DNA from: Botryllus schlosseri
Taxonomy: Eukaryota
Assembly (NCBI GenBank): GCA_051294905.1
Contig: CM119382.1
Coordinates: forward strand, 7,378,001-7,442,000
Length of the DNA: 64,000 nt
Direction: 5' to 3'
Of the stretch, positions 30,314-58,271 are shown piece by piece. A program made the position numbers and the translations under genes. Position 1 is the stretch's first letter, and each line of letters starts with the position of its first letter. Below the pieces are notes generated by a model, which was not told the DNA's origin, did no database searches, and was given only the letters and a program-made list of their open reading frames with translations.

Positions 30314-30328
30314 CCAAAGGCGTTTTTT
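30285..30328 (-). promoter_or_regulatory. -1 programmed ribosomal frameshift signal at the gag-pol junction
   Basis: Slippery heptamer A AAA AAC (30328-30322) in the gag frame, a 6-nt spacer, then hairpin GGG-U-GCUGAUU...AAUCAGC-U-CCC (30315-30285). Pol is in the -1 frame and open through the site. Confidence 0.88.
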
Positions 30329-33603: not shown

Positions 33604-33630
33604 CGATGAGTCAGCGTTATACCGGAAACA

Positions 33631-33648
33631 ATCCCAGTGGTGCCTCCA
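33631..33648 (-). other. Primer binding site complementary to the tRNA-Thr 3' end
   Basis: TGGAGGCACCACTGGGAT matches 17/18 to the complement of the animal tRNA-Thr(AGU) 3' end as I recall it (ATCCCAGCGGTGCCT-CCA). It is preceded by ...AAAACA-TC. Confidence 0.82.
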
Positions 33649-34037
33649 GATGTTTTAAAGTGCAGCTCCAATAACGATTGTTATGCGAGTAGTCCACACT
33701 TGGTTCGGGTTATTTCGCGGTGAGGAGTTGACTCTTCTTTTGTACTCGAGCTGTCCAGACGACGTTCTTGGATATTGATTGAAGTATCCGTAGCGGTTGC
33801 AATGTTGTATATCCAAGTAGTCAATGACCGTTAGGTCCAGAATTCTAAACTAACCTATGCTAACGTGTAATCTAAACCTTAATACAACCAAATACTCCAA
33901 TGTTAATCATGCAAGCGGAAATGAGGTAACTCTATGCGAAACTCGGTTAAATTGGCATACACAACATTCATCAATTATAACACGAGGCATGGTTTAACCT
34001 ACTCAACGTCATGCACAAATAACTCATTTCAAATACT

Positions 34038-34208
34038 CCAAGGTTTGTTTACGCATTTTTATGCGACGGCCTTTCCTGCCGGAAATTTGTGTATATCCAA
34101 GGGTTTGTTTACACATATAATGCATGTGACGGCCTTTCCTGCCGAAAAGTAGCTCCAAGGTTGGTTTACACATATAATGCATGTGACGGCCTTTCCTGCC
34201 GAAAAGTA
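34038..34208. repeat. Three ~57-bp tandem repeats (CCAAGG...GACGGCCTTTCCTGCCGAAAA)
   Basis: Copies start at 34038, 34097 and 34155. Confidence 0.9.
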
Positions 34209-35748
34209 CATACATGACATATAGTTTCACATCCCTCAATTACAATAGTCATGCACGAACTAATAATGATTACAATTCGTTATCTTTCTGGGTTCTTTTC
34301 GCATTGGTGTAAGCTTTTTATTCATTCGTATGTACCGTGTCTCACAGGCAATAGACCTGATTTACCACGAATCCTAAACTCTACACATGCTCCAATAAGG
34401 TAGAGGGTCCTAGCTTAGTCTAAGGGCGCGTAGCTAGTTATAACGCGTAATTAAGACCTAATTATTATCTACAGGCACAGTACTTGACATTAAATTATTG
34501 CAGTGACAACCAATTACTCACATATTAAATGTTCATCAACTCACGCATATATCTAAGACATAAAATGTTAGCGCCATTTTAAAGCAACCTGATGGTATTG
34601 GTCAAAGATACAGTAAATGAAGCGTTTGAACACAATAAGGAAAATTGGCATCATCATACAATAATACATCAAACCCTCACATGAAAGTACCCATCAGTTC
34701 GTTTATGACGCGTAACGCCGGAAGGTTCTGACATTAAGGACGTCGCCTCTTTGACCCAATTGACAAGATCATGTGCCTGGTTAATTGCACGTTGATCCTA
34801 TCAACATGATCATTATGCCTGGTTAGAGTGCATGTGCGTTACTACCCTTAACAAGGTGTTGTTTATTCGAACACTGCCAGATACCAATGGTCCCTTGCGG
34901 GTTTCGTTCCGTTACAGTTCGTTATGATTCTCGTGTCCCGTCACCGTGCCGCAGATTGAACTATGCCATCGCTCGTCCAACGCATCTTTTTCGATCTCCA
35001 TCAGCGTTTTTTCAGGACACCTTCGGCAATCGTACGTTTGAGTACTCAATCTCGTGCATATCTTTTCGAACCCGATTTCTTTGACTCCTTTGATCATGAA
35101 ACAATTTTTTCTGCCGCAGCTTGTCATGATCGTCTCTTCCTCCGTTACTGTTAACGGGAATTCTTACGGGCTTGGTTTGGCACGTTCCAACCTTTGGTTC
35201 ACTGTCCCTTTGTTAGCAGTGATTGATGGTTGTGCCGGATTTCCTTTTATTTCTTCTATTACACTTCGTTAAGCCCTCGAGAGGAGTAATATTTTCGGGA
35301 TCTCGTTTGCACTCTTAGAGTTAGTACTCCCAAGTCGTGTATTATCGCCAGCAGAGTGTCTTGCTATTGCTTTGGTACGAGTATGGCATTTCTTTCTCGG
35401 TATTGTCCAGACGGTATCACTAGGTCTTGTCATACAAATTTTGGGTACATTCGATGTTCATAGAGAGGGCATTGAAATAGACACATATCAGAATATCGCG
35501 AGATTTGTTATCGTAACGCTACTACAATATAGTAATTTGCATACATATACAGATCACGGTGCGATAACTGCGCTTGCCAAGCACATCCATTTCGTAAAAC
35601 GAATGTGCAGACAAGGTGGGTCTATCCCTAATGTCCTACTCAACCATCGACACATCAGTTTCGAAAAACAAATGTGTGGACCGGTTCATGGGTTATTTTT
35701 CCTAAGGTCTATTGATAGTAGTACCGGCCCAAGGTATTTTTACTTTTT

Positions 35749-36168
35749 TTAGTCCTAATTCTAGTCCTAATTTTAGTCCTAATTCTAGTCCTAATCATTC
35801 TCGGTTATAGTCCTAAACATTTTGGAAAGTCTGTCCGTCTTATCCAAGATCTAAAATCAAGGTACGGATCTATATCCATTGTGGATATTGTCCTTAACAT
35901 TTTAGAAAATCTGTCCGTCTTATCCAGGATCTAATATCAAGGTACGGATAGATAATAGTTTAGATATTGTCCTTATCATTTTGGAAAATCTGTCCGTCTT
36001 ATCCAAGATCTAATATCAAGGTACGGGTGTTGTACTTAACATTTTGGAAAATCTGTCCGTCTTATCCAAGATCTAATATCAAGGTACGGATGTATTAATT
36101 ATAGTGGCCCTAATTGTTTTGGAAAATCTGTCCGTCTTATCCAGGATCTAAGATCAAGGTACGGATAG
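35749..36168. repeat. Five TAGTCCTAA units followed by five ~49-bp repeats with variable linkers
   Basis: Core TTTTGGAAAATCTGTCCGTCTTATCCAAGATCTAATATCAAGGTACGGA at ~35820, 35900, 35979, 36042 and 36117. Confidence 0.9.
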
Positions 36169-36217
36169 ATAAGTTATTCCACGAGGGTGTAGGTACTGAC
36201 ACGGATGTTGCGTCATA

Positions 36218-36236
36218 TCTCTTTTCTCCCCCTCTC
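36218..36236 (-). other. Candidate polypurine tract
   Basis: 19 consecutive purines GAGAGGGGGAGAAAAGAGA followed by TA-TG. This is the longest such run I found between the glycoprotein genes and the PBS. Confidence 0.65.
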
Positions 36237-36439
36237 AAATTCGCATAGTTTGAATGCTTGGCACCTGTCGGTTTTACAAGACATCCACATAACGGTCATT
36301 CACATAAGGGTCCGAGCCCAAGTCCAACCCAACTACCTCTTCGTGCAACACACGTTGTATGTGACATGTCCAACACAACTACTCCTCCAACCACTTCGTA
36401 TTGTTAAACTCATTTACCCCACAAAGGCATTTTTTCCGT

Positions 36440-36795
36440 TTTATAATTTTTAATTTGTTCTTCATAAATGTCAACATTTTCTTCATAAAGGTCAATTTTT
36501 TCTTCATAACTTTTAATATTTACTTCATAAATATCAATATCTTCTTTATGAATATCAATTTTTTCTTTATGAATTTCGATATTTTCTTCTTCATAAAGTT
36601 CAATTTTTTCTTCATAAATTTCTATAAATTCAGTTTTCTCTTTATGAATTACAATATATCTTTCATAAATTTCAAGATTTTCTTTATGAATATCAATATT
36701 TTCTCCATAAATTCAGTTTTCTCCTTATAAATTTTGATATTTTCGTTATGAAGATCAATTTTTTCCTTATGGATTTTAATTTTTGTAATTTTTAT
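36440..36795 (-). repeat. ~21-bp degenerate minisatellite, heptad-coding-like (I-D/E-I/L-Y/H-E/K-E-K/N)
   Basis: The minus strand reads ...KIDLYEENVDIYEEQ... with one frameshift and no start codon. Confidence 0.75.
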
Positions 36796-36892
36796 ACCTT
36801 ATTTACACACTTCGGGTTTTATTTTTTTAGAATGTTTTTGGTGGATTTGCTAATGCTATATTGTGTCACCTATATACATTATTTACATTACA

Positions 36893-37720
36893 ATTGCGTT
36901 ATCCCCGCCTTTCCCTTTATCACACTGGGAATGCCAATAACCACGTTCCTTTGACCTATCAACAAGAGGTGTCAAGGAAGACGAGGTCTTCCCATAGTTA
37001 ATGCAGGCGTTAGAAGTGCCAAGAACCAAGCTTATTGTTTCCTACGTTGCTACTTCCACAAGAACGCCCAATAAGCCCAGTTTCTTCTCGCCAAGTTGCA
37101 CAATATATACATGTTGAATGACACCTCTTACCCTATGGTAAGTGCCAATCGGTGTCAATCTTAGAATAGATAGGGATGCCATGAGGCAGGGACAGAAAAA
37201 AGTCACAAATTTTCATTAAAATTCACATAGTTATTTACAGATTCACACAATTTTTATTTTCATTTTTTTATTTTATATATATATACCGATATTTACAGAC
37301 ACTAAAAGATATTGCGTTATCCCTGCCTTCCTCTCCGTCTAACTGGGAATGCCAATGGCCACGTTACTTCAGCGCACTCTTAAGATTTCCAAAGGCCTTT
37401 GGATCACTCACAGAATGCCCAAAGAGAACGCGGTCTTCCCATAGTTAATTTTAGGTGCGGTACGAATTGAGAAGTGCCATGAACCAAGCCTGTTGTCCCC
37501 CATGTTACCCCTAGCATAAGGATGCCCAACAAGTCCGGTTTCTTCTATCAAAATCGCACGCTGTGTATATATATATATGCAGGTGAAAGACCCCTCTTAC
37601 CATATGATGAGCGCACGCTGTGCATATGCACAGGTGAAGGACCCCTCTTATCATACGATAAGTGCCAAGCGGTGTCCTTCGAATTTACCGACTAGGAGAG
37701 GTGCCGTGAGGCAGAGAAAA
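36893..37720. repeat. Two diverged ~310-410-bp direct units with block-wise conservation
   Basis: Shared blocks in order at 36893-37200 and 37311-37720: TTGCGTTATCCC, ACTGGGAATGCCAAT, GTCTTCCCATAGTTAAT, AGAAGTGCCA-GAACCAAGC, GAC-CCTCTTA, AAGTGCCAA-CGGTGTC, TGCC-TGAGGCAG. Confidence 0.8.
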
Positions 37721-38387
37721 ACAAATTAAATTACTTACAAATATACGCGACTATTTACAAATGCAACTTGTGACTCATTATAATTAACGATTGTAAAAAC
37801 CGTTATCGTCACAAGCTTCTCAAAATATAATATTAAACTCTTCCCTTTAATCAATATATAAATAATGTACAACTACTGAGCAAGACGTAGAATGCGGATG
37901 CGGTACTGTGCGGGCGGGGAGCAGAACGGGCAAAACTCAATAACCTCGTAACAAGAAAATTTAAATAAATAAAAGATTAGCAAAAATATTTCATATTGTA
38001 CACAAGGTGATTCTTCACGGGATGGGTGGCTATCAAGTTTATCGCGCGAAGTTAATCAACTTCTACTACTCATTATAACTGGACACCGTGACCGACGATA
38101 AACGATACCCTTATTGAAACGTAGACACCTTCTAGGCTTATTAAGCGGTTGCCATTTGCTTGTTCAGTATCGTCACATGATTGTTTATGTAACTATATAA
38201 TAATTGCGTATACATAATAAAATAAAATACAAGAATACGGCTTCTACTTTCGGGCTATTCCAAAGTTCCACCGTATTCTGGCTCTAACACTTTTTCCGTT
38301 TAGTTTGGCTTGACAGGGGTGCCGAATTGATAAAGTTGTCCTAAGTCCCTGCCAGCCAGTTCTATCATTCTAATAAAGACAAAATTC

Positions 38388-38639
38388 CTACCCGACGCTG
38401 CTTTCAGCGTTCTCTACCGGTTCTAGCGTTGGGCGTGGAGGCGGATGTTGCGGTGACGTTGTCGGATTGGTGTCGTCTCCCTGTGGCTGCGACTGTTGGT
38501 CCTCGTGATTTCTAGCTGGATCGATAAGCTTCTCTATTTCCACCTTCAGTTGTTCTCTATACGAGGGTGATAACGTCTCCACCCATTCGCGCATTTCGCT
38601 GAGGTTCATTGCGGATACGCACAGAGGCAGGTCACACAT
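38388..38639 (-). CDS. Accessory ORF, 83 aa, unknown function
   Basis: ATG start, co-oriented with the cassette, amphipathic helix followed by a Pro/Gln-rich tail. Confidence 0.5.
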   Translation of the reverse strand: MCDLPLCVSAMNLSEMREWVETLSPSYREQLKVEIEKLIDPARNHEDQQSQPQGDDTNPTTSPQHPPPRPTLEPVENAESSVG

Positions 38640-38777
38640 TTTGAATAGCTCAGGTTTTTATTCTCCGTTTAATAATTCCTTATATTTCCTTATATTTCCT
38701 TAATACAAATCAGTACAGTTCACGAAAATGTGAGCACGAAACAATAATACACAGAAGCAACGACACACAATTAAGTT

Positions 38778-39341
38778 CTAGTGGCACATTTCCATATATT
38801 CATCTCCTAGGGAATCTAGACCAGACTCGTCTCGACCGTCTATTTCCAAGAATAGGCCCACGTCAAAGTTTTCTTCTAGGGTCTGTATTGTTGGGGCATC
38901 GGGAGACCAATTGTTCTCCAGAAATTCGTCCACTTCCATCTCGTTTGCGCATAGCAAACTCAAACCCTTCAAGGAAGCACTCAAGCTCTTGTACGCTCGC
39001 CAGGATTCCTTGTTCGACTTATAGCGAGTCATTGTGAGTACGGCATTTGCGTGTGCCATCCGCGCAAGTTTTGCACGTTTTTTATCCGCCTTGATTTTGT
39101 TCATTTTTTCGGAATGAGATAGTTTTAGGTTTTTTGGGAGTTTTGCCATAGCCGCCTTAATATCTTCCCGAGTTATTACTACAGTCCACTTTCCCTTTTC
39201 CAATTTCTCATCTTCATCAATATGTTTAACATCTCTTCGTTTTATTTTCACACCAAATTTCCCATTTTTCAATCCTTCATTAGTCCATTCTTTGTCAATC
39301 GTATATATTTTCTCAACAGTTGGTAATCCGAATCTAGCCAT
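38778..39341 (-). CDS. Accessory ORF, 187 aa, Lys-rich, paralogous to neighbouring ORFs
   Basis: Long ATG ORF in AT-rich DNA that shares motifs with the 191-aa and 135-aa ORFs. Confidence 0.7.
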   Translation of the reverse strand: MARFGLPTVEKIYTIDKEWTNEGLKNGKFGVKIKRRDVKHIDEDEKLEKGKWTVVITREDIKAAMAKLPKNLKLSHSEKMNKIKADKKRAKLARMAHANAVLTMTRYKSNKESWRAYKSLSASLKGLSLLCANEMEVDEFLENNWSPDAPTIQTLEENFDVGLFLEIDGRDESGLDSLGDEYMEMCH

Positions 39342-39492
39342 TCCTGACGGATATCTAGTAATTCTCTTAATTTAATTCTTTTCCTTAAAAACAGATACAA
39401 TACGTCATGACACCAAAATAAGACACAAAACAAAGTTTCAAAAACAGTTTTTTTAATCAGTTTAAAACAGATTTAGCCTATCGTTTGAGGAG

Positions 39493-40068
39493 TCAAAACT
39501 CCAACCGCCGCATGACACGCGAAAGTTTCTTAGTTGTTTGTCGGGTCAGTCGTCTGTCCGAGATGTCTTGCTTACGCGGCGCTTTGTGCTTGATTTTCGG
39601 TCCATCTTTTGGTGCAGGGGTAGAGGCAGGAGGTGCAGGGGTAGAAAGCGCGATACCCAGGGAGGGAGCAAGGGGTGGCCAATGGGTTTTTATAAACTCA
39701 TTCATCTCCGTTTTGTCGATGGACCAAAATTTTAATTCCCCCTCTGTATCAAGAAATCTCTTATAATTTTCAGAGAATTCTTCTTGTGCTCCCTGGATCA
39801 TTTTAACCAAGTCCCCCCAATCTCCCTGGAGCGCATTTCTATCAAGTACGAGCGCTTCCATGGCTTCACATACTTCGATTTTTTTCATAAGTTTTCCTAC
39901 ACTGTCCGGGGTCCCTTGGTTCCTTATTTCTGACGTTTGGGCAACCTCAGCGATTTGAGAATCCGCAAGCCTTATTTTTACTGACCATTCGCCCGTCATT
40001 AGTTGTTCATTCTCCAAAATGGGCATAGTCGGGAATTCGTTCATTTCAGTGGACTCAGCCATTATCAA
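39493..40068 (-). CDS. Accessory ORF, ~190 aa (ATG at 40062), basic C-terminal tail
   Basis: TEMNEFIKTHWPPLAPSL aligns with MEVDEFLENNWSPDAPTI of the 187-aa ORF. Confidence 0.7.
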   Translation of the reverse strand: MIMAESTEMNEFPTMPILENEQLMTGEWSVKIRLADSQIAEVAQTSEIRNQGTPDSVGKLMKKIEVCEAMEALVLDRNALQGDWGDLVKMIQGAQEEFSENYKRFLDTEGELKFWSIDKTEMNEFIKTHWPPLAPSLGIALSTPAPPASTPAPKDGPKIKHKAPRKQDISDRRLTRQTTKKLSRVMRRLEF

Positions 40069-40140
40069 AGTTATTATACAATAGTTCTTTAAAATGAATA
40101 TAGTTTTTTACAGCACAGACATGAACGTTTACAATTACAA

Positions 40141-40548
40141 TTACAATTCCATATCTTCATCTAATGTTTCCCATACGCCAGTCACCGACAGTTCAGCTAT
40201 GGTAGTTACAGTCATGGTAGTGGTGGTACATGTCTCCCAGGGACGCCAGATTGCAACTTCAGTTTGTGACTTCCAATCTATGGCCATTGGGACATTCAGG
40301 AATTCTATCCATGCTTTTTCGACTTCTTCCCTTTCTACTTTCACCATTGCCATCTGGGTTGATGGTTCCGGTAAACTTTGGTTGGTAATTGAGAGGTCCC
40401 TCATTTTGGGAAACCTTGCTCTAGCCACCTCGAGGCCCCCCATGATTGGTTTCTCATCAATTCTTTCCAATACCACAACACATCTACCGGGCAACAGCTT
40501 TTCATCGCCCTCGATTGTATATATTTCCATAGTGGAGCGCACAGCCAT
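40141..40548 (-). CDS. Accessory ORF, 135 aa
   Basis: STMEIYTIEGDEKLLPGRCVVVLERID resembles PTVEKIYTID...LKNGKFGVKIKRRD of the 187-aa ORF. First ORF after the internal TATA. Confidence 0.65.
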   Translation of the reverse strand: MAVRSTMEIYTIEGDEKLLPGRCVVVLERIDEKPIMGGLEVARARFPKMRDLSITNQSLPEPSTQMAMVKVEREEVEKAWIEFLNVPMAIDWKSQTEVAIWRPWETCTTTTMTVTTIAELSVTGVWETLDEDMEL

Positions 40549-40758
40549 TATCTTGGTGACTAGTCAGTAGTTTAGCAATCAATCTTAATAGAATATCAAA
40601 TTGAAGTTATTTAATTTACAAAGGTTCACTTGATCTTATTACAATAGCTGTTGATCCTTATTCCTATGTTATAGCAACAGGCATGAGCAGCCTCTAGCCT
40701 AACCTTCCAACAGGTACAGCCATACCAGAGTGAACACCAGTTGCTATTCTGCCCTACC

Positions 40759-41470
40759 TATATACTCAAACCTAGGAAGTGAAGTGAGGATGTGAGTTAC
40801 CAATGACAGGAAATGGTTGCCTCGGCTTGATGTGAAGCCGTGCATCACAGCTTTGTGAAAGTCCAACAACAGGAAATGTTTTTATCGACTCAACCCAAAG
40901 TTGCGCGTCATAGTTGTTATGATATGCCATCAATAGGAAATGTTTGCCTCTACTAGACGAGAAGTCGTGCGTCACAGCCTCATGAAATGCGAACAACAGG
41001 AAATGCTGTCATCGATTTGATACCAAGTCGCGCATCACAACTTCATGATATGTGAATGACAGGAAATGTTTTCCTTGACCTAACCCAAAGTCGCGCGTCA
41101 CAGTTGCTATGATATGCTATCAACAGGAAATGTTTACCTCTACTTGACGAGAAGTCGTGCGTCACAGCCTCATGAAATGCGAACAACAGGAAATGTTTTT
41201 CACGACTTAACGCGGAGTCGTGCGTCATAGTTGTTGTAATAGGCCATCAACAGGAAATGTTTACCCCGACTTGACATAAGGTCGTGCGTCATAGCTGTTG
41301 TAATAGGCCATCAACAGGAAATGTTTACCCCGACTTGACATAAGGTCGTGCGTCATAGCTGTTGTAATAGGCCATCAACAGGAAATGTTGTTTCCTTCCT
41401 AACACGAAGTCGTGCGTCACAGTTCCATGAAACGCGAACTACAGGAAATGATGTTTCCTGACTTGATACG
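40759..41470 (-). promoter_or_regulatory. Internal promoter: eleven 63-64-bp tandem repeats plus a TATATA box
   Basis: (C/T)AGGAAATG recurs at ~40807, 40870, 40934, 40997, 41060, 41124, 41187, 41251, 41315, 41379 and 41442, mostly with a G(T/C)GCGTCA-type motif. TATATA lies at 40759-40764, upstream of the accessory cassette. Confidence 0.65.
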
Positions 41471-42234
41471 CGCGCGTTGTTTCGTTGATTGGTTTTATTG
41501 ATTAGTAAACGCACAACCTGAACAGGTCAACTGCCGATTGACACAACAAGATTCCTAACGTGCTCGCTACAAGTTATAAAGACATAACAATGTGTTAATG
41601 TACTCACAGGTTCCTCCGTTAGTATGCCTGCGTCCATTCCATGTCTTCGTCTTCGTCCTCTGTCCTTGTCCGTGACCTCTGATCCCTACGACGTCTTAAC
41701 GCTAACTGACGTTCCCTATGCCTATGCCTATGGTTACCGACCCGGCATGCTGACTGGACCCGCCAGCATGCCGGCCCTCATGCCTATAACTACGACTATT
41801 CCTAAGTCTACCCCTATGCTTATGTCTAAGCTTAGGCCTACACGTCCTACCCCTAGCTATGCCTAGCGTTAACTGACCGTGTTCCTTCGCTGTCGTTGCT
41901 TATATGGCCTTCGAGCGTAACCGCGTCGTTGTACGTCATCGTGCGAAGGAAGAAGTTCCGAAAATCTGCTAAGAAAAAATGCTAGTCCTATAGTTATGCC
42001 TAAGTTAATCCGTACGCCTAAACCTATAGCTACACAACGCCTAATGCTAAGCTAGCCCATACCTATCTTTATTCCTAGACGACCTACCCCTAGCTATCCC
42101 TAGACCTAAGTCTAAGTCTACGGCCTATGCATTAGCCTATGGCCAGCCGACCCTATAGCCTAAGCTATCTATTCTAGACGACCTACCCCTAGCTATCCCT
42201 AGATCTAAGTGACCCTATGTCTATTCTGTAGCCG

Positions 42235-42322
42235 TTTATATAGCTTTCGGGTGGAAGTGGGAACGCGTCATTGTGCGTCATTGTGCGTCAATCCGCATTA
42301 TTTCGTGCGTCATTGTGCGTCA
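42235..42322 (-). promoter_or_regulatory. Second candidate internal promoter (TATATAAA plus five TGACGC motifs)
   Basis: TATATAAA at 42242-42235. GCGTCA occurs five times on + within 42264-42322. Confidence 0.55.
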
Positions 42323-42582
42323 ATCTGTGCTGATGTAATGCTTGAAAGTATGTGATTACGTTATCGCTTTTTGCCGTAGGTTTCTCTAGGTCAAAGTAGG
42401 TTTATTCTCGGTCAGACCAGTTCGCCTTCGGTTAAACTGGGCTGTCATCGGCCAACTCTGTTAATTATCGTTAATTTTCGTTAATTATCGTCAATTATTG
42501 TTAATTCTTGGTAATTATTGTTAATAATTGTTCAACACAGTCATTCATCTTTTCAGAAAAAAATTTCTCTTTACCATCGCAC

Positions 42583-45500
42583 TTATTTTTTCGGTTTCAA
42601 ATTCGGTCCTTCAGCCAACGTCGTCATCGTTGTCATCGCCGTCCATACTTGTTCATTGTTCCTTCTTTGAACCTTTTTTACCTGCCCCATAGATCTATTT
42701 TTTCCGTATTTCATACCCGCAATCCACAAAAATACTATTACTGCCACCAGCCCCATCGCCACAACGATTGAATATTGTGTGTTCGGGCCCCGTTTAACAA
42801 TCCCTCCCCCGGTATCTATCGTAGGGGAAAAGATATGTCTTACCGAATACTGCTCCTCCATCTGTAGCAGCTCCTTCAGTCTGTCGTAGTAGCCGAAACC
42901 ATCCTGGGACGGTTTCCCAGAATCCTGGGCACGCGGCGCTCTGGTGAGATTCGAAAAGGGCCCTGCCATCCCCCGCGTCACTTGTCCAGATCGCGAGACG
43001 GTGTCGGTGGTTGTCGGCCCGGCGACCCACGACGTTCGAAAGGGACTGGTCGGTCGCACTCGTCGTTCCGAGGCTTGGGCCTGCGTTGTTGCCAGAAACC
43101 GTGTAGAAACAGCGGTCGCCGCACCCATCGTCGTCGAGACCCGGGGAATAATTGGCACCGCGATTGGGGTCGTCCCTGCTGGTGTTGTCGTGGAGGAGAG
43201 CGTCGAAGAGGCGACAGCGTATGAGCCGATATTCGACAGAACTGATTCCGTCGCTACCGCGTTGGTGACGGAAGCCAACAATGTCCCCACCAATTGTTCC
43301 GTAGATAAGAGTTGTTCTCCGGTGATCATGAAAACCGTATCGCCAGGTGTAGCTTTACTCATAGCTCCGTCACTAGTCGACTCCACCGACGTGATGACGG
43401 GATTGGTCATCGTAGTCGCTTCCGGTGTTGTGGACGCAATCGTCGTAACAAGGTCATGTGTAGATCGCGGGGCAATACGTCCGGTGGTTAGTAGGCGTGT
43501 TGTTATGCCCGGTCCTGTCGTAGAGCTTTCCAAACTCCTTACTTCATCCGTCATGGCTCTGCTTATTGCTATGGTCGTCGGCGACTCGGGTATGGTGGCC
43601 TCTGTTGGCTGCTTTGGTCCGGTCGCCGAGAGATCCCAATGGAGGCGGGTAGTAATTTCCGAACGCGTAGGTTTCGTTAGAGAAAACCTTCTATGTACCG
43701 ACGCACCGGCCCCACCTTGCAAATTCGACAGTGTTCCAAAAAAACCCTTCGTTGGCCGTACAGTGTCGACGCGCTCCGCGGTCAGGTACAAATTCGGCGT
43801 CACGGTTTTCGCCGTGGTCGCCGTCGTTTGGCCCTGAGTGGCGGGCGTTCCTGTCCGAATAGACAAGAAAGTGACACTGTCCGTCGTCCACCGTTCAGCA
43901 TTCTCTGCAGCACCCGCAATTCTGGTAGTCTCCATCATTCGAGCACTAGTTGGTCTGACAGGCGTGGTCACAGATAAGGTTACGGTCGTTCCTCCCTTGC
44001 CGGACTCGGGGTCTCGGGGTGATGGAGTCGCGGTTGCGGCGGCCGCTGAAGATGCGGCAGTGGTCGAAGTGGTGTATTCGGCCAAAGTCGTCACTATTGT
44101 TGATTGTTCTGTAGACACTGGTATGCTCGTCTGTAGAGTAGTGTCCCGAGGAGTAGTAACCTTCGTCGTTGCCTGAGTAGTCGTCCTCGTGGGGTTTGTG
44201 CTCATTTCTGATACAGCCGGCGCATCTGCGGTGCCAGGGGAAGGCCCTGTCGGGGTTCGACCAAATGTCACAGGAGCGCCCGCTGCGGCAGGACTCCCGG
44301 TTGTTGCCATGGACGCCGTGGTTGTCTCGACCCGTTTCGTATACCCTACTGAATCTGCAGTAGTATCGCGGGGGGTCGATGTGAATTTGATCCCTTCGGT
44401 TTTCATCGTCGAATCCACCTGCGCCAGTTTCAAACTGGCCACACTGAATATGGCTGTAGGCGTCGTCGTAATCAAGGCTTCGGTTGTGGACATTGGCGGA
44501 ATGGACGTAGTGGGTCCCTCAGTAGACGCTTCCACCGCCGCAAACGCGGTCTCTTGATCGAGCAACGGCGTTCTTGGAGTTTGTTTACTGGTTATTTCCG
44601 AATATCTAAGGCGGGTAGTTGCGAGATACGTTGTGGTGTCAGGAAAAACGGTGTTCTCTGTGGTGACGACTGTAGTAGGGAGCCAGTACGTGCCCTCAGT
44701 TGTCCGCGGCGCTGTCGCTGGCGCTGTCGTAGGAATTGTCGTTGTTGTAATCGAAGTGCCAGGTTCGAACGAATTCATAGTGGCGTCCGTAATAGTTGCA
44801 GGTTCAAATACAGTTGTTTCTACCGTTGACCGTTCCGAAGCCACAGGTATTCGGGTCTGATGAGTAGTCTCTGGAAGAAGTGTGACCTTCGTTGTTTCCC
44901 AAGTAGTCATCTTCGTGAGTGTCGCGCTCATTTTTGGTACAACGGACACATCAGAGGTGCCCGTAAAAAACTCGGCCGAAGTTTGATTAGCTACTGTAGG
45001 AGGGCTCGTTGTAGTAGAACCGGACGTAGGTCGGGAGTCCGTTTGCAAGGTATCGCCAGTCCAGCTACTGGCGGTTGTTACCGGGCTTGTTTGTTGTGTC
45101 GTGAACGGTCCGGGCGCTGCCGGGGTTTGGGATTGCGTCGTCATGAGTATCTCAGTTGTACTAACATGAGTTGGCCAAGTACCGCTGCGAGTTGCCAGTC
45201 GGTGGTTCGTTGATTCGAATCCCGTCGTTGAGCTTACGGGAACTCTTACTGGTGTTGTTATTTTGACGCTAGTTTCCTGCGCAATCGTTGAAACCCCACT
45301 CGATGATAGAAACGTGGGTTGCGTACCCCTTGTGGTCGCAATCGTGGACCTGTGAACGAGTAGCCTATCAGATGTTTCTCCTAAGGCCACTGCAGAGTAC
45401 TCGTCACTATAATAGTCCCCGTAACCACTTTCGTTATACGCGGACTCGTACCAGCTGTTGTTGTAGTCGTAAGCGTACTCGTAGTAATCTTCATCGTAGG

Positions 45501-47277
45501 CAAAATCGGAATCTTCTTCCCGGTCGGCCTCGTACGGGGAGGTAGGAGTTGCACTGGCCGTACTAATTCGAGTACGGGGCGTAATTGGTGGCGGCAGCGG
45601 TTCTGCAACGGTCGTGACAGAATACGTAGCGTGAGGAATATACAACATTTTTCCTTGGCACAACAGGACCTTGTAGGCCGTCCTGGGTTTGAATAGTTTC
45701 AGCTCGAATTGGCGTGCTTCCCGCAACTTTTGTGTGGCCATAATATTTAGTAAAGCCATATTCACCTTATCGCGCTGTTTCTCACGAGTCTGGTTTACCC
45801 TGAGAGCCCATTGGAAAGGCAGAACTTCCACCGGTGTCAACGATTGATTCCAACCCGCACGATTTTCCCGCATCTTCGTTAGCGGAGCGGCTGCTTCCTT
45901 TAGAATTTGTCGTGTCTTCGTAACATAGAACAACCTCAGACGAGACAGCCAACCCTTTATGCCTTTCTCTCCTTGTTCCGACTCCATAGTGGTCGATGAC
46001 AACATGAGGGTCCCCTCTAACCAGTTGCAAGGAGGTTGTCCCGAGGACCAACCCTGAGGCATTGTCGCCTGGTTGCCAGTTTCCAACGCTGCTGCGCGTA
46101 TTCGGCCGAAACGGTGGTCTGCAAACACAGGTTGATTCCCATAGGGGTCGTACGTCACTTCCCCGGACATTAGAGTCACTTTTAGATTTCCTACTGCATT
46201 TCGGCATTTCTTTTTGTTCTTCTTCCGTTTACATCGCCGGCTGCCCTGCAGTAGGGTGGGAAAGTTTTTGTCATCGTTCAGTGTTTTGGCGTCCCTATTT
46301 AGGAACCTGATGAGCGCGTGAATCTTCCGTCTGTACCGGCCATGGCCATCGAAATTCACGGGCCTATCTCTAGGACCCGTCTTGTTTCGAGCTCGCAGCC
46401 AAACTAGGTCACCTTCCAACAGAGGCACTGGGACACCGCCCGGCCATTGGTTGTACGAGTCGGTCAGCTGTATGTCTGCATCAGTACCTCTAATACTGTC
46501 GTCGATTTCAAGAATCACGATATCCCGTCCTAGGGTATTGGCGATGAAACGGCGTCCAGCAATCGTGCATTCCACACACATCATTCCGCGAGATTCGGAG
46601 TTCGCACAGGTCTGAAACCGGTGCGTTTTAACTATCCATCCTTCAACCCCGTCCGAGCGAAACTCGCACGTCGATCTCACCGTCGCGTATTGTGCCAACA
46701 TATTCATAACTAATATTTTAAATACCGTTAGCACTTGTCGCATTCCAGGGTCGAGTGGGAAGGGTTGACCCGGAGTTTTTTCATGCTCCCAGGTGTGTAT
46801 TAATCCGAAGCTTTTATTGCGATGGTACGTGGTGTTCCCGAACAAAGCCCGCAAGGAGAGGTTCGGTAAGATTCCGGACATATTTCGATCACATCCACAT
46901 GCTCGTTCGTATTTACGCGCTGAGTCCCAATACCGAGCTCCGTGATTCAAATCTGCCAGTAATTTGTACAGTCGGCTACGGCCTGCTCGCATCTGCCCAA
47001 AGGTGGGTGATTCGACAAGTATCGGGAATCTCCGCAACGCCAAGCCTTCCGGCCATTTTCCAGATAGTCGAAACAGTTGATTCAGGCTTACTGTCCTCTG
47101 AACCTGGTCCTCCAGGAGCGTCCATCCCGTAAGGTTGAAATTTTCCATGTTTTCCGCGTGCATGACAGATAAGGGGAGTAGGGCTTCGTTGGTCTGGGGT
47201 TTCACGAGGCTCACACATATGACCATCAACAGGGTCTGCTCGGGCCCGCATCCATTCGGGTAGGTAGTTATCCGCAT
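42583..47277 (-). CDS. 1564-aa type I membrane glycoprotein: Env-SU-like N-terminal domain, Thr/Ser/Pro mucin stalk, TM, basic tail
   Basis: RYWDSARKYERACGCDR...PNLS is shared with the upstream Env. About 900 aa are T/S/P-rich. TM YSIVVAMGLVAVIVFLWIAGM. Confidence 0.85.
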   Translation of the reverse strand: MRITTYPNGCGPEQTLLMVICVSLVKPQTNEALLPLSVMHAENMENFNLTGWTLLEDQVQRTVSLNQLFRLSGKWPEGLALRRFPILVESPTFGQMRAGRSRLYKLLADLNHGARYWDSARKYERACGCDRNMSGILPNLSLRALFGNTTYHRNKSFGLIHTWEHEKTPGQPFPLDPGMRQVLTVFKILVMNMLAQYATVRSTCEFRSDGVEGWIVKTHRFQTCANSESRGMMCVECTIAGRRFIANTLGRDIVILEIDDSIRGTDADIQLTDSYNQWPGGVPVPLLEGDLVWLRARNKTGPRDRPVNFDGHGRYRRKIHALIRFLNRDAKTLNDDKNFPTLLQGSRRCKRKKNKKKCRNAVGNLKVTLMSGEVTYDPYGNQPVFADHRFGRIRAAALETGNQATMPQGWSSGQPPCNWLEGTLMLSSTTMESEQGEKGIKGWLSRLRLFYVTKTRQILKEAAAPLTKMRENRAGWNQSLTPVEVLPFQWALRVNQTREKQRDKVNMALLNIMATQKLREARQFELKLFKPRTAYKVLLCQGKMLYIPHATYSVTTVAEPLPPPITPRTRISTASATPTSPYEADREEDSDFAYDEDYYEYAYDYNNSWYESAYNESGYGDYYSDEYSAVALGETSDRLLVHRSTIATTRGTQPTFLSSSGVSTIAQETSVKITTPVRVPVSSTTGFESTNHRLATRSGTWPTHVSTTEILMTTQSQTPAAPGPFTTQQTSPVTTASSWTGDTLQTDSRPTSGSTTTSPPTVANQTSAEFFTGTSDVSVVPKMSATLTKMTTWETTKVTLLPETTHQTRIPVASERSTVETTVFEPATITDATMNSFEPGTSITTTTIPTTAPATAPRTTEGTYWLPTTVVTTENTVFPDTTTYLATTRLRYSEITSKQTPRTPLLDQETAFAAVEASTEGPTTSIPPMSTTEALITTTPTAIFSVASLKLAQVDSTMKTEGIKFTSTPRDTTADSVGYTKRVETTTASMATTGSPAAAGAPVTFGRTPTGPSPGTADAPAVSEMSTNPTRTTTQATTKVTTPRDTTLQTSIPVSTEQSTIVTTLAEYTTSTTAASSAAAATATPSPRDPESGKGGTTVTLSVTTPVRPTSARMMETTRIAGAAENAERWTTDSVTFLSIRTGTPATQGQTTATTAKTVTPNLYLTAERVDTVRPTKGFFGTLSNLQGGAGASVHRRFSLTKPTRSEITTRLHWDLSATGPKQPTEATIPESPTTIAISRAMTDEVRSLESSTTGPGITTRLLTTGRIAPRSTHDLVTTIASTTPEATTMTNPVITSVESTSDGAMSKATPGDTVFMITGEQLLSTEQLVGTLLASVTNAVATESVLSNIGSYAVASSTLSSTTTPAGTTPIAVPIIPRVSTTMGAATAVSTRFLATTQAQASERRVRPTSPFRTSWVAGPTTTDTVSRSGQVTRGMAGPFSNLTRAPRAQDSGKPSQDGFGYYDRLKELLQMEEQYSVRHIFSPTIDTGGGIVKRGPNTQYSIVVAMGLVAVIVFLWIAGMKYGKNRSMGQVKKVQRRNNEQVWTAMTTMTTLAEGPNLKPKK

Positions 47278-47358
47278 ACTTAGTTTAAGCTAGTAATCTG
47301 TCGTACACAAAATCAAATGTCAGTCCGAGTCGAAGTCTGGGGTCCTGGGGATAGTCGA

Positions 47359-49941
47359 TTACTGTCGTATTATGGGTCTGCGCTGTTTGGTGTAAACGGG
47401 TGCGGACGTGATGAACATTGTTAATTGGGTACCAGTGTTTCGCTTCTGCACCCTTGATTTTAACTTAGGGCAGCATACGCTGTGATACCTAAAGCAGCAG
47501 AACAGGATGATTCCTGCCCCCAGAATGAGGGCCACGGGAAGTAGAATGGAACCCAAACCAGAGAACAGACCGCCCAATCCTTTTCCAAGTATGTCACCGA
47601 CTGCCCCGAGCCCCTTATGTAGCAAGGTTCCCGCGCCCTTCCCGACAGATTCTATAACACCTCCGGCTCCGTTCGCCATTTCTTCTATAGTTTTTCCGAA
47701 GTTCTTCATGAACTCCTCTCCCCCAGCAAACTCGAAGGGTTTCACTGACACGTTTTCATAGCGCCAGTCCGACATATTCATGTACACACTTTTATTGAGA
47801 TCTTCCCTCCATACCTGTATACCGAGATCCACTTCCTGTTGAGCCTGGTCCAGACGGAGCCGATTCGCCCGGAGTTTGTAGCCGATGTCATCCGTCTCAT
47901 TTACATAAGCATCTCTATAGGCGGTAAGCTGCTGAGCGTATTCCTGTACGCGCAACGTCCCCTGTTGAATTTGTGTCCGGTAAATTTTGCTCGCATCAAA
48001 AATCGACCTGCCCGTCAGATTGGTCAATTCTCTCATGACCAATCGATCGATGGCGAGTTCGGCTTCACTTTTTTCTTTAAAATTCTGAAACTGTGAGAGG
48101 GTCGCGGTGGCCTGTCGCAGTATCATTTGTCGGTTTCTTTCCATCATCCGTTGCATCCACACAAGCCGCTTATCAGTCAGTGATGCCCTGGCCTCCATGT
48201 TTGCGATCAACCGGTCCAGTTTGGTTTGTTGTGCCACCTGAAGCTGGGATAGCTCGTTTATTTTTATACCCAGTTCGGTTGATCGCTCCGTAGCCTGGAT
48301 CATCCTGTCATTGATTTGGTTACCTAGGTCTTCAGTCTCCTTGTGTAGTTTATCAGCAACAGTAGCCACCACGGCAATGGTGGCAATGGTGGCAAACAGA
48401 AGAAAGAGCAATCCGAAGAACCTTCTGTGCCTCTTCTTTTTAGTCAATCGTTGTCCGCGCCCCATTATGTCGCCCTTAATTTCTATCGGCCCTCCTGGAA
48501 AGCGTGGTCGGTTACGCTCCGGATCGAAGTGCACTTGGTTCCAAAAGGCAGCTTTCAATTCTGGACCCCCGACCGGATCATGACAGTGATTGTATCTTAT
48601 CCTTTCCACGCACATGGGATCACCGCTGAATAGAGAAGGATGCGCTCGCCATATTGGCAAAATGTTGGCAGGTGCCGGGGGCCTTGTAGCAAAATCGTCG
48701 AAAAAATCGTCCCAATTGCGACCTTGTTCGTCTTTGCCTTCCCAGTTTGGAAACGATGCCTGGATCCACCGTACCCTCCGAGGGAAATTCGTGGTTGGTA
48801 AATCCCCCCATCTACTGGTGTTTGCGGTCGGCCATAGGTTGCAGGAAGGAGGATGCGTAATACTCCGTATGCCATTCCGAGCAGGCGAGGACTGAAAGAC
48901 CCTCCAAAGGTATTCGTAATGTTCCTGGGTGATCAATCCCGCCATAGCACGGCAGTTCTGCATGGGCTGATACCGTCTTTCGAACGGGGAATCCGCACGG
49001 ATAGTATCCAGTTCCTGTATCACTATATCGGCCTGACTCGGCTCCAGGGCAGAGACGACCCCCGCAACGTCGCAGAAGACGCACGTGCCCTGAGAGCCAG
49101 ACGCCGTTGAGGATATCAGTTTTTTTATCCTCGCGCCGGTCTTCTGATCATAGGAAACGGACCAGGCATTATAGTAGGTTATATGATTCCGCCAGCAATG
49201 CGCAATGCGGGTGCTGCTGGCATTATATCTATTCAGTCGATTGACTCGGGTCCAGTTCCAGGTTTCTTCTGTCATTTGTTCTGTTCGACAGGTCGACCGA
49301 ACTGCTGAGAATTTCGCGAAGGTTCGCAACATGATCAATTTGAATTTGGTCATGGCCATCAAGGTATCGTTCACGTGAGACCACTCATCAACAGAAGAAC
49401 TAAGTGGGGGGTCCCACCTATTCCAGGTGTCTTCCCAGGTTTCGTCCCAAAACCATTGTAATCTGACTTTGTGTCCGATTGGTCGCACAAACAAGTTCTC
49501 CTGATTCAAAACCGCAAAGGAAAGGTTCGGCGAGATACGTCCCAGCCCGCGGTCGCACAGACAGGCCCTTTCAAAATCGCGCACGCCAGTCCAATATCGT
49601 CCTCGCGGAAACGCCATTTGTTGCAACGAGATTCGCTCAGCCACCACGTAGCCAAAAGATTGACTATGAAATAATTCCGGTCGTCTGTACACGTGTCGCT
49701 CCCTTGTCCCATTGAACATGGTCATCAGATCATAGTTCTCCCAATGCGTAGCATTGAGTTCAACCCAGTCTTCGGGCAGGGAACCATTCAGTTCACCCAG
49801 TTTACCTTGGGTAAAGGTCCGTCCTCTATCCGTTACAGCAACTGCGGATCCCTGCACGCCGACCGCCGTCGCAGGCAACAGGCTATGAGGTGGGCAAATG
49901 ATACCAACAATGATAGGAAGAATATAAGCAGCGTGGTCCAT
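47359..49941 (-). CDS. env: Envelope / class-I-like fusion glycoprotein (860 aa)
   Basis: Furin-type site KKRHRR followed by hydrophobic FFGLLFLLFATIATIAVVATVA. Long heptad-like region, Gly-rich membrane-proximal segment, TM ILLPVALILGAGIILFCCF, and several N-glycosylation sequons. Confidence 0.85.
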   Translation of the reverse strand: MDHAAYILPIIVGIICPPHSLLPATAVGVQGSAVAVTDRGRTFTQGKLGELNGSLPEDWVELNATHWENYDLMTMFNGTRERHVYRRPELFHSQSFGYVVAERISLQQMAFPRGRYWTGVRDFERACLCDRGLGRISPNLSFAVLNQENLFVRPIGHKVRLQWFWDETWEDTWNRWDPPLSSSVDEWSHVNDTLMAMTKFKLIMLRTFAKFSAVRSTCRTEQMTEETWNWTRVNRLNRYNASSTRIAHCWRNHITYYNAWSVSYDQKTGARIKKLISSTASGSQGTCVFCDVAGVVSALEPSQADIVIQELDTIRADSPFERRYQPMQNCRAMAGLITQEHYEYLWRVFQSSPARNGIRSITHPPSCNLWPTANTSRWGDLPTTNFPRRVRWIQASFPNWEGKDEQGRNWDDFFDDFATRPPAPANILPIWRAHPSLFSGDPMCVERIRYNHCHDPVGGPELKAAFWNQVHFDPERNRPRFPGGPIEIKGDIMGRGQRLTKKKRHRRFFGLLFLLFATIATIAVVATVADKLHKETEDLGNQINDRMIQATERSTELGIKINELSQLQVAQQTKLDRLIANMEARASLTDKRLVWMQRMMERNRQMILRQATATLSQFQNFKEKSEAELAIDRLVMRELTNLTGRSIFDASKIYRTQIQQGTLRVQEYAQQLTAYRDAYVNETDDIGYKLRANRLRLDQAQQEVDLGIQVWREDLNKSVYMNMSDWRYENVSVKPFEFAGGEEFMKNFGKTIEEMANGAGGVIESVGKGAGTLLHKGLGAVGDILGKGLGGLFSGLGSILLPVALILGAGIILFCCFRYHSVCCPKLKSRVQKRNTGTQLTMFITSAPVYTKQRRPIIRQ

Positions 49942-50062
49942 TGGGGCGGAATAGGAGGCTCAGGCCACTGCATAAGCTAGTTAGTATTTTACGAAAGTGT
50001 TCGGTTTATTGTCTGAAAAACACAAACAAAAGCGACTTTTTATGTCAGGCCAAGGGTTACGA

Positions 50063-51079
50063 CTAAAGCTTCACGGGGCACGCGTCGTACTTGTCAAAAC
50101 CGTACCGTGGGTCTCTATTTATGGTCCGCAGTAATTCCAGAAACCTGTCACGTTTCTGGTGTTGTCTTTTCCAAAGCCACTCCCCCACATAATCCGCCAA
50201 AAGGTGGCGTGCTAAGCCTCGGGACCGATGTAAATGGTACTTCAGCGAGCTCCAACATGCCTCCACGTCGTTAGTACAGACACCCTCGGGGCTTTTGAAG
50301 GCCGAGCTATGATCCACGATGCCATGCTTGTAGTCTCGTCCCCAGCTCTCTATTCCTTTATAAGAGGGGTAGGCATCGGTCAAAATCGTAGATCCACTGG
50401 CAACGTTGTCCACAATGAGTTGCTGAAACACCGCCGCCGTTCGATCAGCGGTTATTTCCACAAACATCTTCCCCGTCGCCTTGTCCACTCCTCCGAAAGC
50501 CCATATGGCTTTAATTGCCGGCTTGCCGGATGTAGCGGCTCGTCGTTTTGCCAAGTGAGTCTCGTCTAGGATAACACAACCTCCGACGCCTCCCAAGGGG
50601 CTTTTACTTCGCTGGAATTCAGCCGCGCAGATCTTCCGCAGTCGGCCACACCATATAACCACCGAACGCTTGCTGATTTCGGCTTCGTGGCCTATCTGAG
50701 TCTGTAGGGCGTCGTGGGCCCAAAAGTAGCACAATATTAATAATTTCGGGAGTTCTACCTTGCTACCCGCGAACAGCGAATGTTTGCGTATGGTCGCCGT
50801 AGTATTGCAAGGATTACACCTCCATCTCCAGCCATCGTCCATCGTTGTAGTCGTTTCTTCCTTCATTACCCGCTCACATTTACGGCACTTCATCTTTCGT
50901 ACCAACAGCCCATGATCTCTCATAAATAGTATGCAGTCGCGCACGTCTCGTAGTGCTCCCGACTCGACCAGGCGTAGTACGTTGTATGTCCTGCTTCGTT
51001 GACCTGCAGAAGTGGAATGATACGGTGTTCGTGGGTCGTAGGTTTGCGAGGAACCGCCTTTTTCTCGGCCGCGCTTCAC
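50063..51079 (-). CDS. IS1595/ISXO2-family (eukaryotic Merlin-type) DDE transposase
   Basis: Zn ribbon CRKC...CNPC, IRKHSLF, LDETHL, WAFGGVD, TDAYPSY, VDHS, TNDVEACWS. The reading frame is intact. Confidence 0.92.
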   Translation of the reverse strand: MKRGREKGGSSQTYDPRTPYHSTSAGQRSRTYNVLRLVESGALRDVRDCILFMRDHGLLVRKMKCRKCERVMKEETTTTMDDGWRWRCNPCNTTATIRKHSLFAGSKVELPKLLILCYFWAHDALQTQIGHEAEISKRSVVIWCGRLRKICAAEFQRSKSPLGGVGGCVILDETHLAKRRAATSGKPAIKAIWAFGGVDKATGKMFVEITADRTAAVFQQLIVDNVASGSTILTDAYPSYKGIESWGRDYKHGIVDHSSAFKSPEGVCTNDVEACWSSLKYHLHRSRGLARHLLADYVGEWLWKRQHQKRDRFLELLRTINRDPRYGFDKYDACPVKL

Positions 51080-52227
51080 TAATCAATTCTCTCTTATTTG
51101 TCCCCGTGCTATAGCTAGGTCAGGGTGTTTAATTCACTTGTTCCATATGAGACCTAGTGAATCTAATGCCCATATTTCCGATGTTCAAGTACATCATTGT
51201 TCATTTACTGGTAAAACACTGCACACGCCGATGTTTTCATGTTTCACCTAGGTGCCGTGTAAGTCTACGGCGTTTACTTCACTTGTACCAAATCAGCAGT
51301 AAGCATCCGAGCATAGTACTGTTATACAATACACAGTGTGCACAGCAAAAATATGCAGCAAAGCAAGGACAATGAAGACGAACCAAGTGGAACAGTATTA
51401 CATCACAGCCAATGCAAATCATGGACCATGACAGTATTCTTCAACAACAACAACGACAACAGAGGAAGGTGTAGCAAGTGAAACAGTATTACATCACAGT
51501 CATTACAAATTATACCTATTTCAGTATTTTTCAACAAGAAAATTCAATTTTATATTAAACGTAATCCAACTGGCAAGTGCTACACTTTTGTAAAAGGTAA
51601 TCTGTATATGAAAAGTGTCGTAAGCGTTCGGAGTGAAGTGAAGGTGACTGTCCGTACCATCCCTAGAGTGAAGAACATACGATTACAGGCTATAACATGA
51701 AAACAGTTGAGACGCAAGTCCTGCACCGAGAATAGGAAACTATAATGTCAATAAAAATCAAAATATTATACTGCATGGAATTACGCAGGACCTTTAGTCG
51801 TAGGACAATCTAACGATGTACAGATTGGCAGAGATATGGTATTGTAGGCTACTTAATACCGGAATTGATTGGCGTACTTTGGCAAACGCAACTGTGAAAA
51901 GAAGCAATATGAAATGCAATGAAACGCAACATGTATGTGACAGTGAGTTTTGTGATTGATGGCAAGGCTTGACATGTATATAGGGCGTTAGGGCCGTCAA
52001 GACGTTGGAATATATGCATAGAATTTGAAAAGTTACGGGGCAAGCAATTGTGTAATACAAAGTAAAAATGCATAGACCAGCGTCAAAGATATCAAACACA
52101 GTTTCATCAGGATTGGTCTAAATCAATTCAGTTTTGTGGAAAAGAAAATGTTCAGCCCATGATTGAAAGAGAAAAGCAGGAATAAATATAGTAAGTAGCA
52201 AATACAGAATTCGAACACAAAAACTTC

Positions 52228-58132: not shown

Positions 58133-58271
58133 TTGAAGAGCTTCGTGGAGGTACAGAACTTCAATATACAATTAAATAGTATATTCATATTGAAATGAAC
58201 CCGAATATTTTCGGCTGACACTCGTCAGCCGAAAATATTCGGGTTCATTTCAATATGAATATACTATTTAA
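58133..58271. mobile_element. 139-bp hairpin mini-insertion of the Penelope-like family seen at 9.8 kb
   Basis: 12-bp TSD TTAAGGTAAAAC (58121-58132 and 58272-58283). The paralogous empty site lies at ~16415 (GATAAGGTAAAACGTCGAAT). Confidence 0.85.

Follow-up and report, generated by a model that had tools for sequence, protein, structure and literature searches.

Two tandem paralogous envelope genes, one fusogen-type and one with a mucin-like stalk, in a transposase-ended retroelement of Botryllus schlosseri

A 64,000-nt stretch of DNA from the tunicate Botryllus schlosseri (GenBank assembly GCA_051294905.1, contig CM119382.1, positions 7,378,001 to 7,442,000; hereafter "the window", in whose coordinates positions are given) carries two long open reading frames (ORFs) in tandem on the minus strand, separated by a gap of 81 nt. 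The first, env860 (860 aa, 47359..49941), has the anatomy of a class I-type fusion protein precursor. The second, env1564 (1564 aa, 42583..47277), appears to encode a fusion-dead paralogue with type I membrane topology and a mucin-like stalk. Both genes lie together with gag-like and pol-like ORFs in one mobile unit, all of whose genes are on the minus strand.

The two envelope genes and their shared head

Are the two genes related? An earlier note on this DNA, made from the sequence alone, described four ordered motif blocks in both N-terminal domains and took the genes to be paralogous. All four blocks are present, in the order described. The significance of the head alignment, which had been set beforehand as the test of paralogy, is far above that of shuffled sequences: the local score is 144, whereas none of 2000 shuffles exceeded 65 (z 21.6), BLASTP gives E 2e-12, and profile–profile comparison gives a probability of 99.9 and E 2.6e-36 over 297 columns. 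Residues 88–389 of env1564 also score 114 bits against a profile built only from fusogen-type relatives, a profile that does not include env1564. The homologous head is ~300 residues long, and 8 of the 10 head cysteines of env860 align with env1564 cysteines in the profile–profile comparison. Head identity is ~21%–31%, with ~21% in the alignment. By these sequence comparisons, the homology of the two heads is beyond doubt. A VQ(K/R)RN likeness between the tails, which the note had also listed, is not significant by itself (E 1.1) and was dropped as proof of paralogy. Neither protein matched a Pfam family.

The layout of env860 is that of a class I-type fusogen. It begins with a signal peptide (hydropathy peak at residues 7–16) and a head, or surface subunit, of ~440 residues defined by profile comparisons (residues 60–495, 48457..49764). 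A basic putative cleavage site, RHRR (504–507), is followed directly by a hydrophobic, fusion-peptide-like stretch (508–528) with a hydropathy of 2.81 (together 48358..48432). Next come a first long helix of 115 residues (529–643, 48013..48357; predicted local distance difference test [pLDDT] score of ~60–68 in the structural model), a second helix, a Gly-rich segment, a membrane anchor (~residues 797–821, 47479..47553) and a Cys-rich tail. The anchor is helical in the model and has a hydropathy of 2.79, with its peak at residues 799–817. The two predicted heptad helices (529–643 and 650–715) appear capable of forming a hairpin (model pLDDT 50–75). Thus, the furin site, fusion peptide and heptads that had been assigned to env860 are all borne out as sequence features. 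Cleavage, trimer formation and membrane fusion are predicted from this anatomy.

Relatives of env860 have a similar arrangement at the cleavage site. A search among 1.84 billion representatives returned 39 matches, 3 of which (P0035, P0036 and P0039) were judged to be spurious repeat matches; P0035 and P0036 were excluded from all alignments, and P0039 was used in alignment A1 only. The relatives include proteins 72% and 60% identical to env860, and the ten that were looked up are Logan or ENA proteins. At the place of the env860 cleavage site, a basic site is found in 12 of 14 fusogen-type relatives, and a hydropathy of at least 2.0 in 11 of 14; in this landmark measurement, the P0005 landmark was mis-picked and three relatives are truncated. 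Two fusogen-type relatives, P0006 and P0008, have N-terminal extensions of 300–380 aa, with an EGF-like repeat and Cys-rich segments in that of P0006. These extensions are possibly another route by which the env860 family has added an attachment module.

To which envelope family does env860 belong? There was no confident match among the named families compared: paramyxovirus, pneumovirus and baculovirus F, herpesvirus gB, retroviral Env, haemagglutinin and coronavirus spike. The env860 model, which is of modest confidence, had no Foldseek match at E 0.001, and VIA-align returned only coiled coils. Among the sequence comparisons, foamy-virus Env was matched by 1 of 37 family members (E 1.2e-5). 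A likeness to the haemagglutinin stem (E 0.023) is centered on the last head cysteine, the cleavage site and the first helix; a second profile weakened it to E 0.12 or worse, and it remains a lead only. ESM feature similarities of env860 to spike, haemagglutinin and F are 0.87–0.89, below the level at which the tool is trusted, and there are weak leads to coronavirus spike or an esterase. An envelope family with no confident known match is a new target for structural work.

The stem and stalk of env1564

The head of env1564 (residues 63–394, 46096..47091) retains the 8 aligned cysteines. From the head's end to a motif shared with env860 (residues 374–529), there is no basic site, and the best 15-residue hydropathy is 0.38, as compared with 2.81 in env860. 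Two furin-like motifs, RYRR (314) and RCKR (348), are located inside the head, with no hydrophobic peptide behind them. Behind the head is a shortened stem (45652..45936), consisting of a predicted helix with a heptad pattern (448–525; 78 residues vs 115 in env860; pLDDT 49–57, in a model whose alignment included fusogen rows) and the shared motif, F-x5-Y-x6-G (529–542). The motif occurs once each in env860 (648), in env1564 (529) and in P0032 (500), a relative discussed below, and it is present in 21 of 23 fusogen-type relatives; by chance, it arises in 207 of 20,000 shuffles of env1564 and 360 of 20,000 shuffles of P0032. The distance from the motif to the membrane anchor is 131–151 aa in 11 full-length fusogen-type relatives, 164 aa in P0032 and 975 aa in env1564. 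These 975 residues are mostly Thr, Ser and Pro (T/S/P); no second, membrane-proximal heptad helix was found among them, and a second-helix profile is unmatched.

The stem is likely, although not proven, to be a remnant of the fusion subunit. Since the stalk starts behind the helix and the shared motif, it does not replace the whole fusion subunit; rather, it seems to replace the second helix only and to begin behind a retained, shorter stem, an arrangement that is suggestive but not significant. The earlier note had reserved the furin site, fusion peptide and heptads for env860 and had placed the stalk of env1564 where these parts would be. For the fusion peptide, this agrees with the low hydropathy of the corresponding region. 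For the furin site, it is correct at the matching place but overlooks the two motifs in the head. For the heptads, it conflicts with the predicted 78-residue helix. The position given for the stalk fits the second helix but not the first, which precedes the stalk together with the shared motif.

The stalk itself (residues 640–1450, 42928..45360) was recognized by its composition: 811 aa, 43% T/S/P (T 25%, S 11%, P 8%) and zero Cys. This agrees with the ~900-aa T/S/P stalk noted earlier; ~900 aa is reached if a Pro-, Tyr- and acid-rich lead-in is counted, making the stalk 58% of the protein. Dense O-glycosylation is predicted from the composition. The stalk contains one internal 150-nt duplication (71% identity), and no tandem array was found in it. 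Behind it is the membrane anchor (1504–1522, 42712..42768; hydropathy 2.76). At the stem–stalk junction is a Tyr- and acid-rich patch (583–630, 45388..45531), in which 11 tyrosines stand amid acidic residues. These tyrosines may be sulfated, judging from the sulfation consensus. The adhesion receptors GPIb-alpha and PSGL-1 combine sulfotyrosines with a mucin domain, a layout that the env1564 patch resembles. The env1564 model had no confident match in fold searches.

How old is the duplication? env860 has relatives at 72% and 60% identity, compared with ~21% between the two paralogues, and the split is therefore old. A second protein of the env1564-like, apparently fusion-dead design points in the same direction, with weak tree support. 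This is P0032 (722 aa), in which the head is followed, without a basic site, by the motif at residue 500; ~100 residues rich in S/T, an anchor and a tail of basic character complete the protein. It is the best match of env1564 among the 40 proteins compared (E 8.6e-22, residues 116–556). Alternatively, env1564 and P0032 may have acquired this design independently. The earlier proposal of a duplication followed by specialization is supported as far as the duplication and the loss of fusion parts from one copy are concerned, by the profile homology, the absent cleavage site and fusion peptide, and P0032; the specialization belongs to the readings weighed below.

Possible roles of env1564

What might a fusion-dead envelope protein with a giant stalk do beside a fusogen? 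The likeliest reading, to which we give roughly even odds on the basis of sequence features, is that env1564 is a non-fusing tether and is the first of the two proteins to touch the target cell. In this reading, the retroelement family had an ancestral envelope gene that was duplicated long ago. One copy, env860, would have remained cleavable and of the class I fusogen type. In the second copy, env1564, the head, a shortened stem and the anchor would have been kept, while the cleavage site was lost together with the fusion peptide and a heavily O-glycosylated stalk grew at the position of the second helix. Unable to fuse, env1564 would be incorporated into the same membrane as env860 and would bind, over a long distance, either the target cell or the sugars that coat it; cleaved env860 would then carry out fusion, so that the two proteins cooperate. 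An extended rod measures ~0.2–0.25 nm per residue. The env1564 head, on an extended glycosylated rod, could thus reach well over 100 nm, far beyond the fusogen. In favor of this reading are the homologous head with its retained cysteines, the absence of a basic site and hydrophobic peptide, the shared motif, P0032 and the viral precedents discussed below. The 1564-codon frame also stays open at ~21% identity to its paralogue, and contigs of three DNA data sets (X1, X5 and X8, the last from a second organism label) cover it, some at ~87% identity.

Several observations weigh against the tether. First, the identity of the stem is open to doubt: fusion-subunit profiles score it within the shuffle range, the F-x5-Y-x6-G motif was selected after the alignment had been viewed, and the motif is modelled as strands in env1564 and as helix in env860. 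Second, no lectin or receptor-binding fold was recognized in the env1564 head by fold searches and the ESM Atlas. Third, the tree joins env1564 and P0032 at only 72/60 support, between long branches, and a clade of env1564, env860 and P0003, which would mean a recent duplication, is not rejected (approximately unbiased test, p 0.21). P0032 is known as a protein sequence; scans of loci in viral contigs and metagenomes found no relative with DNA context, and word-index protein searches, the ESM Atlas and locus scans found no close orthologue of env1564. Fourth, no full-length second copy of env1564 was seen. Pieces of the X1, X5 and X8 contigs cover all 30 bins of 32001–52000, env1564 included, some of them identical to the window and some ~87% identical, but none spans the whole env1564 gene; X1 may be the window's own source, and X8 is thin over the env1564 stalk. 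Fifth, RNA run X17, of which 6% was read, has zero reads on env860 or env1564. Finally, a stalk this long might be as much an obstacle to fusion as an aid.

One alternative, which we consider unlikely, is that env1564 acts on the carrier cell, either by occupying or hiding the receptor and thereby blocking superinfection, or by damping the fusion of host cells with one another by env860. In class I envelopes, the head is the receptor-binding part. env1564 retains the head without the fusion parts, and its own acceptor-like splice site (see below) would make it separately regulable. There is a precedent in suppressyn, a fusion-dead envelope protein that binds the receptor of syncytin-1 and blocks fusion (PMC3598002). 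A receptor blocker would have no need of a 900-residue stalk, however, and a head identity of only ~21%–31% makes a shared receptor doubtful.

Rather less probable is that the stalk is the functional part, as a glycan shield or anti-adhesive coat against host lectins and complement, or as an aid to release, with the head serving only in folding and transport. The mucin domains of filoviruses and pneumoviruses are shields. The env1564 stalk makes up more than half of the protein and is of low complexity, and its length apparently varies among copies: of the four joints listed within the gene, three leave out a number of bases divisible by three, a count from four rows among those listed. The position of the head, at the far end of the stalk with its cysteines retained, speaks against a shield, as does P0032, which retains the head on a stalk of only ~100 residues.

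It is quite improbable that env1564 is a decaying, functionless relic, carried along as the element's DNA is moved by the transposase. The lack of env1564 reads in X17 would be consistent with a relic. Among the best 40 of 3298 rows, which were preselected by support, 24 coding changes were labelled. Over both envelope genes, 9 of 17 listed changes are synonymous and none is a stop (p 0.01–0.03 vs neutral, a weak sign given the preselection). For env1564 alone, 4 of 8 are synonymous, which is indistinguishable from neutral (p 0.12–0.18) and compatible with decay, but again none is a stop. Moreover, the 4.7-kb frame is open, with the signal peptide, cysteines and anchor intact despite deep divergence, and P0032 has the same design. 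Mixed oligomers with env860 through the retained helix, or an env1564 fusogen with an unusual trigger, would account for the persistence of a long predicted heptad helix and the shared motif, but are more improbable still, given a helix of 78 rather than 115 residues with no hydrophobic peptide before it and no second helix for fold-back.

How does the pair compare with known systems? Pneumovirus F and G are unrelated proteins, and G is mucin-like and anchored at its N-terminus. Like env860 and env1564 under the tether reading, they pair a fusogen with a mucin-like attachment protein; unlike them, env860 and env1564 are paralogous and are both C-terminally anchored. The "F plus G" parallel drawn in the earlier note therefore fits in function but not in origin, for which ephemerovirus G and GNS are the better parallel. 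Rhabdovirus G is a class III fusogen, and no sequence relation was found between ephemerovirus G/GNS and env860/env1564. In bovine ephemeral fever virus, an ephemerovirus, the envelope glycoprotein is duplicated; as here, G and GNS are encoded by tandem homologous membrane glycoprotein genes, with the derived copy directly behind the fusogen (PMC4334499). Unlike env1564, GNS is called non-structural and belongs to an RNA virus, and no mucin stalk is described for it in the accessible text (PMC4334499). Group I baculovirus Ac23 is, like env1564, a homologue of a class I F protein without a furin site or fusion function, and it is still found on the virion. One baculovirus F-like protein has insertions at the fusion-peptide region and before the anchor, the same places that are altered in env1564. 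Ac23 differs in belonging to a DNA virus in which the unrelated GP64 performs fusion, so that the pair is not paralogous, and in having no giant stalk (PMC4864199). Nairovirus GP38/Gn provides another envelope glycoprotein paralogue linked to a mucin-like domain. It differs in that the system is class II and encoded as one polyprotein, GP38 is secreted and cut from the mucin part, and the companion rather than the fusogen is duplicated (PMC7108853).

What are the implications? Duplication of a fusogen with loss of fusion in one copy is known; what is new is an envelope family with no named relative, inside an unusual retroelement. Likewise, a division of labor between fusion and attachment is known from some viruses and was not found described for a retroelement. 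In published descriptions of retroviruses and envelope-carrying retrotransposons, one envelope protein is, to our knowledge, responsible for binding as well as fusion. A split of the two functions between paralogues would, if true, be a new entry design for retroelements. It would also be a readable case of a fusogen becoming an attachment or shielding protein, a step that has left no trace in pneumo- and paramyxoviruses. The literature searched, outside of which lay most subscription journals and Repbase reports, contained no description of a retroelement with two paralogous envelope genes. In one retroelement survey, the terms "two env", "mucin" and "Merlin" are absent from the main text, and the supplements list many elements (PMC13524379).

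The surrounding element and its messages

The element that carries the two genes is 24,876 bp long (26414..51289, minus strand) and is bounded by an 8-bp target-site duplication and by imperfect inverted repeats that start with GG and agree at 17 of 24 bases. The ends were found by a search for Merlin-type ends using duplication-anchored pairs; they are the best of 9597 such pairs (next best 14/24), and 17 matches were reached in 0 of 200 shuffles. Merlin DNA transposons have inverted ends starting with GG and target duplications of 8 or 9 bp, and the ends of this one copy agree with that definition (PMC8101967). The genes are arranged in the order transposase, env860, env1564, repeats, four small ORFs, repeats, 103-aa ORF, gag and pol. 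The transposase is a Merlin/IS1595-type DDE protein of 286 aa from the first ATG (50063..50923, with the frame open to 51082); its match to PF12762 (E 1.2e-10) exceeds the curated cut-off, and the D, D and E motifs were found. The four small tandem ORFs (135, 189, 187 and 83 aa; 38388..40548) have no Pfam match above the cut-off and are presumably accessory genes. The 103-aa ORF (33292..33603), recognized from the ORF listing and a Pfam search, has an N-terminal hydrophobic segment and is located directly before the gag-like ORF (979 aa, 30307..33246), which has a CCHC zinc knuckle (PF00098, E 4.6e-4, just under the cut-off). The pol-like ORF (1146 aa, 26651..30091) has reverse transcriptase, RNase H and Tpt1/KptA domains by Pfam. 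The reverse transcriptase, which is intact, and RNase H are of the long terminal repeat (LTR) type, and the best solved relatives of pol are 8r0s "Enzymatic polyprotein", Pr125Pol and Ty3 chains. No integrase family was matched in pol by Pfam; the usual integrase position, at the C-terminus (26651–27030), is taken by a Tpt1/KptA RNA 2'-phosphotransferase domain (PF01885, E 1.2e-6). The pol N-terminus (29950–30091) has a retroviral-protease-like shape but lacks the catalytic D-T/S-G; three repeats rich in Cys and His come after it (29191–29563). Self-comparison of the window revealed no LTR pair around the element, and Rfam had no match within it. Relative to gag-pol-integrase-env, the genes are circularly permuted, with the circle opened between pol and the transposase. 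Such an order would be compatible with integration of a DNA molecule that was circular or permuted.

How does the element compare with known mobile elements? Errantiviruses, the envelope-carrying Ty3/gypsy elements, resemble it in having gag, pol and a furin-cleaved envelope protein with a fusion peptide, and they occur in invertebrates including tunicates; they differ in having LTRs, an integrase and a single F- or gB-type envelope gene (PMC13524379). The element described here has neither an LTR pair nor a matched integrase, and has two envelope genes with no Pfam match to F or gB. Merlin transposons share its GG-ended inverted repeats, 8-bp duplication and IS1595-type DDE transposase; unlike the element, they have no reverse transcriptase mentioned in the main text of PMC8101967. 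Teratorn, a herpesvirus with piggyBac, has a transposase that has taken over viral integration; transposase-based integration would be common to both, and the herpesvirus and piggyBac parts differ (PMC6431247). No description of a Merlin–retroelement combination was found in the literature searched. That the envelope genes have been kept for so long suggests spread of this element, integrase-less and transposase-ended as it is, from cell to cell or from animal to animal. The broadest reading, which we hold tentatively and at clearly less than even odds, is that the element represents a tunicate lineage of enveloped reverse-transcribing viruses, with a Merlin-type transposase replacing the integrase and a two-part entry machine derived from a duplicated fusogen of an undescribed family, in which one protein fuses and the other is a mucin-stalked attachment protein. 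If so, the origin of an attachment protein from a class I fusogen would be visible in sequence, with P0032 as a short-stalk stage. The earlier note took the pair to imply real extracellular particles. That conclusion goes beyond the data: X17 has no envelope reads, and spread from one cell to the next, or a role on the carrier-cell surface, would explain intact envelope genes equally well.

How might the two genes be expressed separately? A splice-acceptor-like site (branch-like CTGAC, pyrimidine tract and CAG; 47298..47327, minus strand) lies 20 nt before the env1564 start, and the env860 start has acceptor-like sites 26 and 71 nt upstream (near 49968 and 50013), as seen in the sequence without a chance control. 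With such sites before both starts, leader trans-splicing or ordinary splicing could give separate messages. Tunicates use trans-splicing and operons (PMC3691228). No spliced envelope reads were seen in the part of X17 that was read. Nearly all of its 1373 reads match only 33870–33901 and are flanked there by an adapter at one end and by variable sequence at the other. At 33878–33901 on the minus strand is a perfect copy of what we take to be the host's spliced leader, followed by a GT donor; it lies ~275 nt before the 103-aa ORF and gag, and >1100 reads match only here. DNA depth is much higher in 33.3–36.7 kb, and the leader copy may therefore be part of a short repeat nested here, not of the element itself. 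Folding of the 82 nt from the leader-like site is no better than that of shuffles (z 0.05).

Between env1564 and the small ORFs are approximately ten 64-bp repeats (40800–41466), a donor-like GTGAGT near 41605 and a TATA-like box near 42240. This region, including 41600–42220, is probably an internal promoter and enhancer, judging from these motifs. An A/G-rich array of 21-bp repeats at 36429–36800, minus strand, reads as E/K/I-rich heptads and is frame-shifted. Beyond the element, ~940 bp from its end, is an IAP-type RING-finger exon (52228–52572, minus strand; PF13920, E 1.2e-10), which is probably part of a host gene that was hit by the insertion or lies next to it. The flanks at 12147–18073 and 53040–61849 form an old segmental duplication with 72%–89% identity and a spacing of 40–44 kb.

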